In this document: positions 6,001 through 18,000 of the stretch, piece by piece | How positions within the stretch are numbered: the stretch's first letter is position 1 | Layout: each line of letters starts with the position of its first letter | Source: Elusimicrobiota bacterium | GTDB taxonomy: Bacteria > Elusimicrobiota > Elusimicrobia > F11 | DNA length: 34,822 bases | Assembly (NCBI GenBank): GCA_046153645.1 | Contig: JBJXGI010000021.1 | Coordinates: 1-34,822, forward strand | Reading direction: 5' to 3' | Position numbers: made by a program

Positions 6001-9000
6001 CTCTTCTGGCTTAGCTTGAAGAATCCATTCCACTTTTCCCTGTTCAAGTGAAGAATAACCATCCTCACCCATTCCAGTATCCAAGAAAAGCTCGCGAATA
6101 TCTCTTAAACGACACTGAGTTTTGTTGATGTAATATTCAGATTCTCCGGAGCGATAGAGTCTTCTAGCGATAGAAACATCTGTGAAATCAATGGGGAGAC
6201 GTTTATCGGAGTTATCAAAAGTAAGAGTCACTTCCGCCATATTTTGCGGTGGACGAGATCCTGATCCATTAAAAACAACGTCCATCATGGCGCTGGATCT
6301 CAGTGATTTGGCAGACATTTCCCCTAAACACCAGCGTACGGCGTCTATGATATTTGATTTTCCGCATCCATTTGGTCCAACAATGGCAGTAATCCCTGGT
6401 TCTATGTCCAGAGTAATTGTATCAGCGAAAGATTTAAATCCATGAATTTCGAGGCGTTTTAAGTGCATAGGTTAAGGGCTCCTCACAACCAGATGTAGTT
6501 TACGACACAATAACCACCATATATTGATTCTGGAGGCGGAACATATTGTAAACGATTTAACCGTCGGTGGGCAAGAAAAAATGTTGGGAAGATGAAGCCT
6601 CAAAAATAAAAAAGCCCTCGCCAGGATTTTTCCAGCGAGGGCTTCTATTTTGAATTAAATATGAATCAGTTTATTTTGGAGTAATCTTGATGGCAAGAAC
6701 AGGGCAAACGCTTTCGCATGCCATACAGAAAATGCAAGATTCTTCTTTTGCAGGGGCCGCTTTCTTTTCAGAAGCTGGATGACCTGGGGTATCTCTCCAC
6801 TCAAAAACATTTTCCGGGCAAGCATCTAAGCAAGCGCCATCGGCAACGCAGATGTCAAAATCAACAGCCACCCAAGTGCCATGAATGCCAAGTTTAGCGG
6901 GAGCTTGCACTGGGCCCCAAATCTGATAACCTTCTGGTGCTTTTCCTACAACTTGTCTATTAGTTTGAAAATCTGGATCAATTGCGGCCATTTTTTTAAT
7001 CCTCCTGAGTTTAAACGACTTTAAATTTTTATAACAATACCATTATTTTTAGTTGTGTAAACTAAAAAACTTAAGAACCACTATTTTCCAACTCTTTTTC
7101 TATCGCAGGAAGAATATCTTTAAAATCTCCTTCAACAGAAAAAGTGGCCAACTTCATGAGCGGCGCTTCAGGATCTTTATTAATACAAACAATTGTTTCT
7201 GAAGAATTCATTCCAGCTAAATGTTGAATTTGTCCAGAGATTCCAGCGGCGATATAAAGTTTAGGGCGAACAACACGACCCGTAAGTCCAATTTGATGTC
7301 GATAAGGAATCCAACCCGCGTCTACAGCACGACGGCTTGCGCCAACGGCACCGCCCAATTTCTTGGCTAAACTTTGTAAAGGTTTAAAACCATCTTGCCC
7401 ACCAACACCATATCCACCTGCAACAATCACAGTTGCTTGAGAGATATCAACTTCTTGATCAACTTCTGGCGTAAATTTTATAAATCGTTCTCTTTGTTTA
7501 TATTTAGATAAATCTACAGAGACTTTTTCTATTTCACCTTTTCGTCCCATTTCTTGTTTGCCAGGAGCAAAAGCCATAGGCCTCACAGTTGCCATCTCAG
7601 GACGGTGCCCACGAATACACAAAATGGTTGCCATTAATGTTCCACCAAAAGAAGGACGAATAGCGTTTAATACTCCGCCTTTTTCTTTATTAATTCCAAG
7701 TTCAGTGGCATCAGCAGTGATCCCGGTATTGGCTTGAACAGCAACTCGACTACCAAAAGAACGTCCAATTATAGAAGCAGGCAATAAAAACTTATTGGGT
7801 TTTTCTTTCATCATCAAATCTGTTAACACATTGGCATAAAGCTCATCGACAAAGTTTTCAAGAACGTCGTTTTCAATCACATAAACTTTATCAGCACCGT
7901 ATTCAATGAGAGTCTGCGCAAATTGAGAAACATTTTTACCAATAATGACAGCACATAATTTTTCATTTAATTCAGCAGCCAAGCCTTTAGCCACATTTAA
8001 TAGCTCAAAGGCTGTGCTCATTAATTGTCCATGCCTCACTTCTGCAAAAATCCAAACATTTTTATGATTTTCTGGCTCAATGGGAATTGAAAGTATTGAT
8101 TGTTCTGACATGATTGATTTCCTAGTTAGATAATGTGAGATTCTTTAAGTTTTTGAACTAAATTTTTTGCCTTTTCAGCTGGTGTAGCACCAGTAATGAC
8201 AACACCGCCTGTTTTCATTGGAGGCCTAAAACTTTTTGCAACAATGGTTGGAGAACCTTTAAGACCAACACAAGCCAAATTAGCACCGATGGTTGCTCCA
8301 TCCCATTTCGGAATTTCAGCTTTTTTTGCGTTCATTTTTCCTTTGAGAGAAGGAACACGTGGTTCATTAATTTCTTTAATAACTGCGATAACCGCTGGCA
8401 AATCCATTTCAATAACGTCGATTCCATCTTCCATGAGTCGGTGAACAACAATAGTTCCACCTTTGCCAGTTCCAATGGATTTTATGTCTTCGACTTTTCT
8501 AACATAAGCAACATTGGGCCAGTCCAACCAAGCAGCCAAACCTGGCCCGATATGCCCCGTATCACCATCATTGGTTTGCTTTCCACAAATAATGAGATCA
8601 ATAGGTTTAAAATCTTTCATTACTTTTTCAATACCTTTAAAAAGCGTATATGACGTAGCCCACGTATCAGCTCCGGCAAATTCGCGTCCACAAAGATGGA
8701 AAGCTTGGTCGCATCCTCTAGAGATTGCGTCACGCAAGGCTTGTTCGGCTTGAGGAGGGCCCATAGTAAGAACACTCACCGTCGCATCACCACCCACTCT
8801 TTCTTTTATTCGAACGGCCTCTTCGATGCCATACTCGTCAAAAGGATTAATGGCGGCCGCCATTCCCTCTCTTTTTAATGTTCCGGTTTCCGGATCAATT
8901 TGTACATTATCTGTGGCTGGAGTTTGTTTGATACAAGTAAGAATATGCATTTGAAATTATTTTCCTTGGGATAATTAATATTTGTAAATAATAAGGAGAG

Positions 9001-15000: not shown

Positions 15001-18000
15001 ATAAACGAAACCCGAACAAGCGGCGGAAATATCAAAAGCAATTGCTTTATTCGCGCCTAAAGCTCTTTGAACCAAGCAACCAACAGAGGGAAATAAATGG
15101 TCAGGAGTACAGGTTGCAACAATAATAGCCTCTAAATTTTCTGGCTTTAATCCCGCTGCTTCGAGCGCTTTTTTCGCAGCTTCAGTAGATAAATCAGATG
15201 TGGCTGTGTTTTCGTCGGCAATTCGTCTTTCTTGTATTCCCGTGCGAGAGCGAATCCATTCATCAGATGTTTCTACACGTTTTGAAAGTTCTTCGTTAGT
15301 TAAAACTTTTTCAGGAAGTGCACAACCAGTCCCAGTAATATAAGTATTTTTAATCGACATTTTAGGCAACAATAACGTTTTGGGATGTATTTTTTAGAAG
15401 AGTCTTTATGTGATCATTAATGTTATCTTTTACAAGTTCACGAGCCACTCTGAGAGCATTTTTGATGGCATAAGCGCTTGATCCACCATGACTAACAATA
15501 GAAACACCATGAACACCTAAAAGTGGGGCTCCACCATATTCTGCGGGATCAACCTTCTTTTTAATATGTTTAAAGGCTCCTTTAACAAGCATCCCACCTA
15601 GAATGGTTAAAGGATGCCCTTTTATCTCTCTTTTAATTAATTTTAACAAAGCTTCTGAAAGTCCTTCCCCAAATTTAAGGACAACATTTCCAACAAATCC
15701 ATCACAAACAATAACATCCGCCTTACCCATTGGAATATCACGCCCTTCAATATGGCCAATATAATTCAAGGAAGAGTTTTTTAATAATTGATGGGTTTCT
15801 TGGGTCAATTCATTGCCTTTACCCTCTTCTTCACCAATAGAGAGAAGGCCCACCCTAGGATTGGAATTTTTAAAAATAGCTTCGAAATAAACTGAGCCCA
15901 TAATGGCAAATTGAAATAAATGTTTGGACTTACAATCCATGTTGGCTCCCATATCTAACATAACACATTGACCATCAAGCGTTGGGAGAATAGTGGCAAT
16001 AGCAGGACGAGAGATGCCTTCTAACCTTCCCAATTGGAGTAAGGCTGAAGTCATTGTTGCTCCTGAATTACCAGCAGAAACCAAGCCATCGGCTTGTTTT
16101 TCTGCAACCATTTTAGAGCAAACCATTATGCTTGAATCTTGCTTGGATCGGCAGGCATCAACAGGCGACTCATGCATGTTCACAACTTCAGATGCATGAT
16201 GAATCCGAATAGGAAGAGAAGAACCAATATGATGACGCTTCAACTCATCTGAAATTCTATCTTGATCTCCGACAAGAGAGACTTCAAGGTCTGACCACTG
16301 CCGACAAGCATCAATAGCGCCTTGAACATTAACAGAAATACCATGATCTCCGCCCATTGCATCAAGAGCAATTTTGACCAAGAACTATTTCCCCTCTTTC
16401 TTCTTTGGCTGTTTTGGGGCAAGAATAAGTTCGCCACCATAAAAACCACAATAAGGACAAACTCTGTGAGGAAGGATACCCTTTCCACATTGAGAACAAT
16501 TAGACAAGCTATTTGCCACAATTTTAAAATTTGCAGATCTGCGCATATCTCTGCGCATTCGTGTATGTTTTTTCTTTGGATTAGCCATTTTCTCTCCTAA
16601 TGAATTACTAGAAACTATTTAGAATCAAACTGATTTAATGCTTTCCAATTATTACTGACTTTAAGGCTTTCACAGTTACAATTGGTAATATTTTTATTTT
16701 CTCCACACGTTGCACAAAGCCCCTCGCAGGATTTAGTACAAATAGCAGATAATGGTAAATCGGTAAAAATCGCATCCCGGATCTCAGAATTTACATCGAT
16801 TTCCGCGCCCTCAATAGCAAAGGATTGCAAAATTCGCACATTAAATGATTTATCTACATCTTCCAAACATCGTCCACATGTTAACCGATAACGAGTTGAA
16901 CCAAAACCAGAAAACAACACTTCTTCGCCAACCAATTTCGCCTTTCCTTCAACATGAATTGGCATATGAAAATCTATAAACGAAGGCAATTCTCCTAATA
17001 AAGCCTTAGGGTCAAAATCCTTTGTCTTTTCTTCTGATCCTAAATCACGCAAACGGGAAACTAAAAATTTCATATTCCACTTTCCTGATAAGCACAAGAC
17101 CAACAACTTCCGTTAAAAATCATTTTAGATCAGTAATTTAAGGTTATTATTCCTGGCTGGAGTAACGGATAAATTCGGCATTATCCTAAATTATTCAGAA
17201 AGAATTGTCTATAAGCGAGAATACTCTTTTACTGTTTCGGAAACCATAAAAGAAAAATCCCATTCGTCATTTACTGAATTTTTGGCCGCGATTCCAAACT
17301 CATTACGAATGGATGGGTTTTTCAATAAATATTCAATTCTATTAGTAAAAAAATCCAAATCAGAAGGAGAACCAAGAAACCCATTGATATTGTTTTTAAC
17401 TATTTCCGATGCGCCATCAACATCAGTTGCAACAACAGGTTTTCCTATCGACATAACTTGAGGAAATACACAAGGAAGTCCTTCATAAAGTGACGTTAAA
17501 AGAAAAATATCAAAGCTTTGCGCTATTTCATTAACATCATCTCTCCATCCCAGGAAATGAACATGGGGTCTAATATTAAGCTCTAGTACTTTTTCCTCAC
17601 ATGCTTTTCTGAGAGGGCCATCTCCAACATAGATAAAATGTACATTGGGCATCCTATTAAGAACCTTATAAACGATATGGATAAAAGCCATGGGGTTTTT
17701 TTGAGGTTTAAAATTCGCAATAGTTCCAACAACAAACTCATCTTTAGGAATATTTAATTCCATTTTTATTTTATCCGTTGATTTGGTTGAGCGCCATTTA
17801 TCCAAATCAATTCCTGCTCTAATAATTTTATATTTATTCACATTCCCAATACCCAAAGATAAACCTTTTAACTTATCAGAGTTAGCCACACAAATAATCC
17901 GCGTTGACGTCAACGACAAAAATTTTTCTATAACAATAAAGACTTGTCGAAGGATGGGGTTCATTAAGTCATTAAAAGACCAACCGTGAACAGTATGAAT

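Follow-up and report, generated by a model that had tools for sequence, protein, structure and literature searches.

A candidate ETF-fed enoyl-ACP reductase with an acyl-CoA dehydrogenase fold in the fab operon of Elusimicrobiota

The enoyl-ACP reductase (ENR) is the most variable step in bacterial fatty-acid synthesis, and the genome of an Elusimicrobiota bacterium (completeness 99.7%) raises the question of which protein performs it: as an earlier note on this DNA had stated, the type II synthase is otherwise full, with FabZ, AccB and AccC all found, and FabI, FabK and FabV are not detected in the genome. By score none of its nine SDR proteins is a FabI or FabL, its two NMO-family matches, considered as FabK candidates, proved to be GuaB3 and HisF, and FabV has no match here while the family does match in three relatives. 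The window, a stretch of 34,822 nucleotides from contig JBJXGI010000021.1, offers a candidate in an acyl-CoA dehydrogenase (ACAD)-fold flavoprotein encoded among the fab genes. It is the only ACAD of the genome, as had been claimed, and stands beside the genome's single EtfA/EtfB pair.

Profile matches and sequence give the order rpmF-plsX-fabH-fabD-fabG-acpP-fabF-rnc-ACAD-etfB-etfA-ferredoxin with a terminator at the end, all on the minus strand, which reproduces the gene order and identities previously described for a module of ACAD, etfB, etfA and ferredoxin inside a plsX-fab-rnc operon. On the 5' side lies yceD (DUF177; 16615..17106, minus strand like all features given below; Pfam YceD), commonly the first gene of rpmF-plsX-fab operons, followed by rpmF (L32; 16385..16588; TIGR01031). 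Matches above the respective cut-offs identify plsX (15362..16381; TIGR00182), fabH (14368..15372; TIGR00747), fabD (13430..14395; TIGR00128), fabG (12665..13408; TIGR01830) and fabF (11011..12255; TIGR03150). The acpP gene (12339..12578; TIGR00517), encoding the sole ACP detected in the genome (one match), has a likely ATG start at 12578 preceded by AGGAGG, and 3' of it a terminator-like hairpin (12288..12311) is seen as a consensus match only. The likely ATG start of rnc (RNase III; 10341..11024; TIGR02191) at 11024 overlaps the fabF stop. The candidate reductase gene (9084..10313; 409 aa), recognised by profiles, structure comparison and sequence, begins with a GTG 27 nt past the rnc stop, with an AGGAGG. 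It is followed by etfB (8126..8950), etfA (7071..8111), a dicluster ferredoxin (6671..6991) and, at the operon end, a stem-loop of 15 pairs with a T run (6610..6646; hairpin scan), beyond which lies smc. Rfam has no matches in the window, and a promoter scan of it found 29 against 26.3 expected, no excess over chance. A recent insertion of the module was rejected, the GC and GC3 of ACAD, etfB, etfA and ferredoxin being within or near the fab-gene range.

Pfam domains, the three-domain fold, FAD-binding motifs and a catalytic Glu place the protein in the ACAD superfamily; this residue, Glu386 of a YEGT motif, is invariant across 54 sequences. The AlphaFold model (pLDDT 94) matches 4L1F and 5OL2 with TM scores of 0.87-0.88, and every one of its closest experimental structures is a CoA enzyme, the butyryl-CoA dehydrogenases coming first. 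The fold is distinct from the SDR or NMO/TIM-barrel folds of the known reductases FabI, FabL, FabV, FabK and FabMG. D239, R242 and R393, which we take to be CoA/pantetheine-binding residues, are all present and, like the closest structures, count against the reading proposed below. In a tree with 30 Bcd-type and catabolic ACADs, the protein and its relatives split off as a separate clade with support 1.0; it neither groups with Bcd nor adjoins crt, hbd or thl. Further features are an insertion of about 25 aa, helical and confined to the lineage, around residues 306-333 and a set of residues conserved specifically in the clade, including R28, R178, R/K303, N394 and K402, the basic ones among which are at most an indirect sign of ACP binding. 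Longer fused forms (11 matches, 32-43% identity) are all generic ACAD fusions, none with ACP or a fab enzyme, and constitute weak evidence. We propose, from comparative sequence analysis, that the ACAD is an ETF-fed, ACAD-fold enoyl-ACP reductase that stands in for FabI, FabK and FabV without being homologous to them, a reading to which we assign a probability of about 0.78.

The proximity of butyryl-CoA dehydrogenases in structure could instead speak for a CoA-dependent, Bcd-like enzyme, which would furnish short or branched acyl-CoA primers for FabH, or reduced ferredoxin from enoyl-CoA, while some other protein reduces enoyl-ACP. Two further points accord with this, namely the frequent location of the ACAD directly after fabH and the presence in this genome of a thiolase (above cut-off) and a long-chain acyl-CoA ligase (at cut-off). 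These two, together with an orphan FixC-FixX pair, also qualify the earlier assertion that beta-oxidation enzymes are missing, which holds for enoyl-CoA hydratase (none in the genome) and for 3-hydroxyacyl-CoA dehydrogenase (none; two 3HCDH matches were judged false); neither crt nor hbd is present. The adjacency to fabH is neutral, because FabK genes in this operon position also come after fabH. The lack of a 3-hydroxyacyl-CoA dehydrogenase here, the lack of a hydratase that would make enoyl-CoA in 136 of 151 Elusimicrobiota genomes and the retention of the ACAD in operons without fabH all argue against a CoA enzyme, which we regard as improbable. CoA-pathway context is generally sparse in the phylum (ECH in 15/151 genomes, FixC in 17/151).

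The distribution of the clade was surveyed in 151 genomes of Elusimicrobiota, 151 from a Desulfobacterota sample and 101 of Nitrospirota, where it is distinct, mostly single-copy and found in 137, 73 and 43 genomes respectively, counts that come from related genomes and not from independent samples. Thus, its conservation across Elusimicrobiota, small genomes of 0.6-1.1 Mb among them, is confirmed, and the module is not confined to Elusimicrobiota and Omnitrophota, the two phyla first named. Its position after fab genes likewise recurs, directly 3' of rnc or fabF in 33 of 40 wide loci; of the arrangement considered conserved, fabF itself fares less well, with canonical FabF above cut-off in just 89/151 genomes. 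Of the 137 Elusimicrobiota with the clade, 100 give no match to FabI, FabV or the NMO family at the thresholds used. A known reductase accompanies the clade in seven (FabI in four, FabV in three), and 30 carry a FabX-like NMO protein. The statement that FabK is wholly absent therefore stands for canonical FabK, but not for NMO-family (FabX-like) proteins, which occur in 32/151 genomes; six of those from relatives scored 129-150 against the FabK cut-off of 453.

In several Elusimicrobiota families a type I synthase without an ER domain replaces FabH/D/F (no ER match in six complete synthases scanned), and the ACAD clade is retained beside such synthases and where the operon has no fabH. FabI lies directly 5' of the type I synthase in two genomes, and large ORFs 5' of the ACAD in two other loci (L048, L051) match neither FabF nor FabD. 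A single-contig genome (G066) has a full type I synthase and no clade ACAD, FabI, FabV or NMO match, carrying only a distant 547-aa ACAD with an ETF. This genome favors the alternative that enoyl-ACP is in fact reduced by an SDR, MDR or FabX-like protein not yet recognised as a reductase and that the ACAD and ETF are merely co-located, as do the nine SDRs and three MDRs (one CurA-like) of the genome studied here and the continuing discovery of further ENR classes (PMC9260719). However, three genomes of 0.6-1.6 Mb (G022, G031, G145) have no MDR protein, and mere co-location would have to recur in many gene orders.

Indeed, 126 of 174 clade loci have a same-strand fab gene within 5 kb, in many gene orders, across at least five phyla and with or without etfAB, while none of 34 other ACADs does; the remaining 48 loci lack fab linkage in the flanking DNA examined. 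In Desulfobacterota the ACAD occupies the slot of FabK: three loci (L212, L214, L220) read plsX-fabH-ACAD-fabD-fabG, compared to rpmF-plsX-fabH-FabK-fabD-fabG-acpP-fabF-rpiB-glyA in G181 and rpmF-FabK-fabD-fabG-acpP-rpiB-glyA in G188, and eight of the best 10 FabK loci share this slot. Among the 101 Nitrospirota 43 have the clade, 44 have FabI and none has both; in Desulfobacterota the clade is found in one of 22 FabI genomes and one of 11 best-FabK genomes, the FabK of the latter being outside the fab operon. It also occurs in nine of 28 Desulfobacterota genomes with FabK-like matches of at least 300 bits and in 12 of 15 with weak FabI-query SDR matches (E 1e-26 to 1e-35), so that other reductase candidates exist in that phylum. 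Hence, with exceptions in the form of these co-occurrences, G066 and the unlinked loci, the ACAD is found where a reductase gene would lie and takes the place of known ENRs from genome to genome. Chance linkage does not account for the exclusion of FabI, and we consider an unrecognised reductase beside a bystander ACAD hardly probable.

The swap and the exclusion also bear on the idea that the ACAD is an oxidative acyl-ACP dehydrogenase, which like FabX of H. pylori would make unsaturated fatty acids, passing electrons from ETF through FixCX to quinone. ACAD-fold enzymes acting on carrier-bound substrates do exist (the MbtN, RedW and PigA models), and the fab linkage would be accounted for as well. 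Besides FixCX, two genes for heme-copper oxidase subunit I are found in the genome, so that oxidation with quinone as acceptor could take place in this organism, and the single ETF probably serves the orphan FixCX as well. Yet such an enzyme would leave the reductase gap unfilled in 100 of the 137 genomes and predicts neither the FabI exclusion (0/44) nor the exchange with FabK; moreover, FixC is present in just 17 of the 151 genomes and a FabX-like protein is already there in 30 carriers. An oxidative role thus appears unlikely. The enoyl-ACP reductase reading, first put forward in the earlier note, is supported by genomic inference from the FabK swap, the FabI exclusion and the retention beside ER-less type I synthases, more strongly than by the evidence then at hand.

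The ETF suggests how such a reductase might be driven. The Gly of the DGDT motif in EtfB, which we take to be the equivalent of Gly123 of the A. fermentans ETF, is present in the window and in 112 of 127 EtfB proteins (Ser in nine, Asn in one, five unmatched). A small residue at this point, Gly123 in A. fermentans, permits beta-FAD binding (PMC12630350). The marks of group-2 (bifurcating) ETFs (PMC10734219) are RPxFGG in the large subunit and, in the small one, RxGV and SPTxV. Their counterparts here are RPSFGG in EtfA and REGM and GSPTIV in EtfB; among clade ETFs RPxFGG is found in 75/89, RxG[VMIAL] in 104/114 and SPTxV in 70/114. Gene context, distribution, fold and motifs are observed, whereas the ACP carrier, the reductive direction, the electron donor and bifurcation are inferred. 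By analogy with Bcd/EtfAB, NADH would reduce the beta-FAD of EtfAB and the alpha-FAD would hand single electrons in turn to the ACAD flavin, from which a hydride would pass to trans-2-enoyl-ACP, with C2 protonated by Glu386. In families with an ER-less type I synthase the ACAD would serve that synthase in trans. If the ETF bifurcates, the second electron of each NADH would go to a ferredoxin (enoyl-ACP + 2 NADH + 2 Fd(ox) -> acyl-ACP + 2 NAD+ + 2 Fd(red)). The acceptor could be the 2x[4Fe-4S] domain that is fused to 62 of 89 full-length EtfA proteins of relatives and, in the window, whose EtfA has no such N-terminal domain, perhaps the adjacent free ferredoxin. We are less sure of ferredoxin coupling than of the ETF-fed enoyl-ACP reductase itself.

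Bcd/EtfAB (C. difficile 5OL2, A. fermentans 4L1F, M. elsdenii 1BUC) shares with the module the ACAD fold (40-43% identity), the catalytic Glu, group-2 ETF motifs, the ACAD-etfB-etfA order and the proposed reductive direction, but the window ACAD belongs to a separate clade, keeps company with fab genes instead of crt/hbd/thl and would act on ACP-bound chains of growing length; the clade also occurs outside the phyla given for Bf-Bcd (PMC6085437). The caffeyl-CoA reductase CarCDE of Acetobacterium woodii (6FAH) combines an ACAD and EtfB with a 2x[4Fe-4S] ETF subunit (PMC6085437), a domain also carried by most EtfA proteins of the clade, but CarC is more distant (258 bits) and functions in caffeate respiration. 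FabK shares the operon slot, proposed reaction and flavin dependence, but is a non-homologous TIM barrel whose FMN takes its electrons straight from NAD(P)H (PMC9260719, PMC8626469). A precedent comes from Euglena wax-ester synthesis, in which an ETF-fed ACAD reduces trans-2-enoyl thioesters during fatty-acid synthesis, although this is a mitochondrial, CoA-based reverse beta-oxidation fed by quinol (rhodoquinone) and not an ACP-based FAS (PMC6587861). MbtN, RedW, PigA and AnaB illustrate that the fold can take carrier-protein substrates, but they are oxidative enzymes of secondary metabolism, and the window ACAD scores 53-225 bits against model cut-offs of 500-700. A 2022 review of ENRs lists SDR or TIM-barrel classes, with no occurrence of "acyl-CoA dehydrogenase" (PMC9260719), and our literature search, outside the coverage of which lie subscription papers and supplements, found no paper describing an ACAD/ETF-fab module. 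With this module, the last step of fatty-acid synthesis probably takes a form that has not been described before.

If so, an ACAD-fold class would be added to the enoyl-ACP reductases, a pathway hole would be filled in about 90% of the sampled Elusimicrobiota, half of the Desulfobacterota and 40% of the Nitrospirota, many "butyryl-CoA dehydrogenase" or "beta-oxidation" annotations in these genomes would denote biosynthetic genes, and lipid synthesis would be linked to electron bifurcation. The fullest version, a new structural ENR class widespread in anaerobic or little-cultured phyla and running by flavin-based electron bifurcation, we hold at slightly less than even odds. In that event every elongation cycle would also yield reduced ferredoxin, making core biosynthesis partly energy-conserving, type II FAS and the ER-less type I synthase would share one enzyme, and additions of FabI or FabV would be limited to some respiring lineages.

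The free ferredoxin had been counted in the conserved arrangement, but it was found in one of 40 wide loci and otherwise adjoins etfA only in the closest relatives. It aligns with the archaeal zinc-containing ferredoxin 1XER (E 6e-46; about 66/102 identical, ~65%) and has the Zfx architecture of an N-terminal extension and a dicluster core. Of His16, His19, His34 and Asp76, presumably the zinc ligands of Zfx, the equivalent of His34 alone is retained in the alignment. Judged from its distribution and sequence, it is a family-specific ferredoxin of archaeal type.

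On the minus strand of the window the genes run yceD, rpmF, plsX, fabH, fabD, fabG, acpP, fabF, rnc, ACAD, etfB, etfA and ferredoxin, an order that an earlier note had described from plsX onward and that NCBIfam matches and the sequence bear out. Scores of the fab genes and of rnc exceed the respective NCBIfam cut-offs; the ACAD, an acyl-CoA-dehydrogenase-fold flavoprotein (9084-10313, minus strand), falls below every cut-off, its top model being AcrC (379 vs 640 required). Its start lies 27 nt past the rnc stop with AGGAGG ahead, and a hairpin of 15 pairs with a T run lies downstream of the ferredoxin gene. 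Judged by spacing alone, the genes appear to be co-transcribed.

The genome (completeness 99.7%) encodes FabZ, AccB, AccC and a single ACP. The earlier claim that it lacks FabI, FabK and FabV held up: none of its nine SDRs scores as FabI or FabL, true FabIs of relatives reaching 256-349 bits on the FabI models, and FabV is absent by the same family search that detects it in three relatives. Two NMO-family matches were considered as FabK and rejected, as they are GuaB3 and HisF. A single ETF pair is present, and the ACAD is indeed the sole acyl-CoA dehydrogenase. The reported absence of beta-oxidation enzymes stands for enoyl-CoA hydratase (ECH) and a real 3-hydroxyacyl-CoA dehydrogenase, neither of which was found in the genome, but it does not hold throughout: a thiolase scores above its cut-off, a long-chain acyl-CoA ligase reaches its own, and FixC and FixX form an orphan pair. 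This pair (contig C79:53-3090, locus L299) follows a multiheme cytochrome c gene and has no etfAB in its vicinity. Also present are three MDR proteins, two 2-oxoacid:ferredoxin oxidoreductase beta subunits and two cytochrome c oxidase subunit I homologs; E. coli Rsx queries gave no Rnf match. Given FixC-FixX and the oxidase homologs, among others, respiration is probable in this organism, and the ETF may serve two clients. A biotin-type cluster (C71:44524-50757, locus L006) includes a FabG-like SDR and a FabF-like protein of its own, flanked by radical-SAM and aminotransferase-like genes; it resembles the D. vulgaris pathway, which likewise has no enoyl reductase gene (PMC10102598).

Among 151 Elusimicrobiota genomes 137 carry an ortholog of the ACAD (E < 1e-99), including genomes of 0.6-1.1 Mb, and it lies directly behind rnc or fabF in 33 of 40 wide loci picked to span families. 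The 151 include 4 genomes with FabI, 3 with FabV, 32 with NMO-family proteins, 17 with FixC and 15 with ECH; FixC also occurs in 6 of the 7 FabI/FabV genomes. FabI, FabV and NMO are all missing from 100 of the 137 carriers. Six NMO proteins that were scored on the FabK model reach 129-150, its cut-off being 453, and each ends in a C-terminal four-cysteine motif; by sequence, the NMO proteins of relatives fit the FabX-like type (PMC8626469). These FabX-like proteins (loci L089-L100; 32/151 genomes) all lie outside the window's class. Fourteen genomes lack the ortholog, and eight of them were looked at individually. G123 has a contig break within rnc, G122 a partial match at a contig end, and G047, G012 and G143 lack canonical FabF too. 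G021 lacks ACAD, ETF and FabZ, its type I synthase (L107:8419-14799) has no KR or DH match, and fatty-acid synthesis has possibly been lost. The only ACAD of G066 and G080 is a distant 539-547 aa form with ETF, which could replace the clade enzyme there. G066 is a clear exception: one contig with a full synthase and no match to the clade ACAD, FabI, FabV or NMO. In family f2 the distant form is followed by etfB-etfA at L116:9117-10760 (G066), L117, L118 and L120.

Canonical FabF exceeds its cut-off in only 89/151 genomes; in most members of families f2, f3, f6, f7 and f9 the best FabF match is near 1e-55, and in all seven genomes examined this match is a type I synthase. The layout is KS-AT-(second KS)-ACPn-KR-DH in five of the seven; another is truncated where its contig ends, and the seventh is that of G021. 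None of the seven gave an ER-domain match. The enzyme matches the 'Type R' of PMC3098273. All six complete synthases have further genes behind them, including, in two genomes scanned, a carboxyltransferase (G066 and G021) and a PPTase (G066). Synthases of 2400-3200 aa (L104:6604-15630, L105, L106, L109, L110) in families f2, f6, f7 and f9, where canonical FabF is missing, may be the main fatty-acid synthase of those families. At six loci the operon has shrunk to rpmF-plsX-fabG-acpP-rnc-ACAD, and the ACAD was therefore kept while fabH, fabD and fabF were lost. We infer that an ER-less synthase requires a reductase in trans; in G078 and G130 the gene immediately upstream of the synthase is that of FabI.

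A GTDB contig scan recovered 80 loci, including deltaproteobacterial, Nitrospirae, Spirochaetes, Actinomycetota and Dehalococcoidia records, with orders such as rpmF-fabH-ACAD-fabD-fabG-acpP-fabF, rpmF-plsX-ACAD-fabD-fabG, rpmF-ACAD-etfB-etfA-fabG-acpP and plsX-fabG-ACAD-acpP-fabF-rnc-etfB-etfA. A clade profile built from 54 proteins was searched in 151 genomes of the phylum of a Syntrophorhabdus record (G151), presumably Desulfobacterota. A single match of at least 614 bits occurs in 68 of them; the clade count of 73 also includes a split copy linked to fab genes and four divergent copies (569-582 bits) outside fab context. A divergent ACAD-etfB-etfA module outside the fab operon, its EtfA having no Fe-S domain, occurs in four genomes of 1.5-1.8 Mb (L252-L255). 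Linkage to fab genes at 5 kb holds for 29 of the 30 best loci of this sample and 15 of 20 further ones. G156 reads rpmF-plsX-ACAD-fabD-fabG-acpP-fabF-rpiB-glyA, with the ACAD where its sister G181 (rpmF-plsX-fabH-FabK-fabD-fabG-acpP-fabF-rpiB-glyA) has FabK, and this is where FabK lies in eight of its ten best loci. The clade occurs in 1/22 FabI genomes (E < 1e-50) and 1/11 whose FabK scores 370 bits or more; however, it also occurs in 9/28 with FabK-like matches of at least 300 bits and in 12/15 with weak SDR matches. Among 101 genomes of the phylum of a Nitrospirae record (G153), compared for the clade and FabI, 43 have the clade, 44 FabI, none both and 14 neither; plsX-fabH-ACAD-etfB occurs in 12 of the 15 best loci. 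Overall a same-strand fab gene lies within 5 kb in 126/174 distinct clade loci vs 0/34 other ACADs, with flanks of 1.5-8 kb, some ended by contig breaks. As related genomes are non-independent, these counts are given without P values.

The feature is real, and its genome context backs it well. Four observations call for an explanation: the missing reductase, the slot shared with FabK, the exclusion of FabI and the synthase that lacks ER. Their simplest account, with a probability of roughly 0.78, is that the ACAD is an enoyl-ACP reductase (ENR): electrons from NADH would pass through EtfAB to the ACAD, which would reduce enoyl-ACP. An oxidative, FabX-like role is improbable, as it leaves several of these four observations unexplained; the same holds for a role in supplying CoA primers, which we consider just as doubtful, and several of them would likewise lack an explanation if an unknown reductase were the true ENR, an equally slim prospect. 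An ACAD acting as ENR would put a familiar enzyme type to a new use and would constitute a new ENR class. The ENR types listed in a review (PMC9260719) are SDR and FabK, and the term 'acyl-CoA dehydrogenase' does not occur in it. Other papers describe reduction of enoyl-CoA by ACAD/ETF during fatty-acid synthesis in Euglena (PMC6587861), use of an MDR reductase instead in S. acidocaldarius (10.1101/2024.07.05.601840), and bifurcating Bcd mainly in Firmicutes, Fusobacteria and Bacteroidetes (PMC6085437). The module is not mentioned in the accessible parts of PMC10102598, PMC13691511 and PMC2613244, and a literature search, its scope lying outside subscription journals and supplements, found no description of it.

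The AlphaFold model of the ACAD (pLDDT 94) has a normal ACAD fold, nearest to the butyryl-CoA dehydrogenases (Bcd) 4L1F, 5OL2 and 1BUC. A tree built with FastTree from 191 sequences puts 30 Bcd-type and catabolic ACADs on a branch of their own, with support 1.0, and leaves the remaining 161 outside it; fab-side groupings have low support (0.4-0.8), so the clade root is uncertain. Residues that set 153 clade members apart from 30 other ACADs include R28 (96% of the clade, where 83% of the other ACADs have Ala), R178 (100% vs 23%), R/K303 (91% of the clade), N394 (96%) and K402 (98% vs 40%), whereas at position 232 a basic residue is exchanged for a hydrophobic one. If these residues form a basic surface, it would suit the acidic ACP. 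Residues about 306-333 form a helical insertion of ~25 aa with a basic stretch at its end, which most members of the window's class share and other clade members lack.

The window's EtfB has the Gly of the DGDT motif, as do 112/127 relatives, and we take this residue to be Gly123. According to PMC12630350 Gly123 marks bifurcating ETFs, but a canonical ETF can feed Bcd and Bcd-ETF is an NADH oxidase in air; hence bifurcation is not assured. RPSFGG in EtfA and REGM and GSPTIV in EtfB are the motifs of group-2 ETFs as defined in PMC10734219. Two N-terminal CxxCxxCxxxC motifs occur in 62/89 EtfA proteins; the window's EtfA has none, and a ferredoxin gene comes next. Coupling to ferredoxin falls somewhat short of even odds for the clade overall; it is likely where a lineage's EtfA has the fused domain, and less likely where DGDT has Ser and that domain is missing. 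The Zfx-like ferredoxin of the window (6671-6991, minus strand) is ~65% identical to archaeal 1XER, and its named homologs are from Elusimicrobia and archaea (Nitrososphaeria, Bathyarchaeia). Of the four zinc ligands of the archaeal zinc-containing ferredoxin, three are lost. A free ferredoxin may have taken the place of the fused Fe-S domain in this respiring lineage. Elsewhere in the window, type IV pilus genes (pilQ, pilM, pilin; 23367-29331) lie upstream of a polysaccharide gene block.
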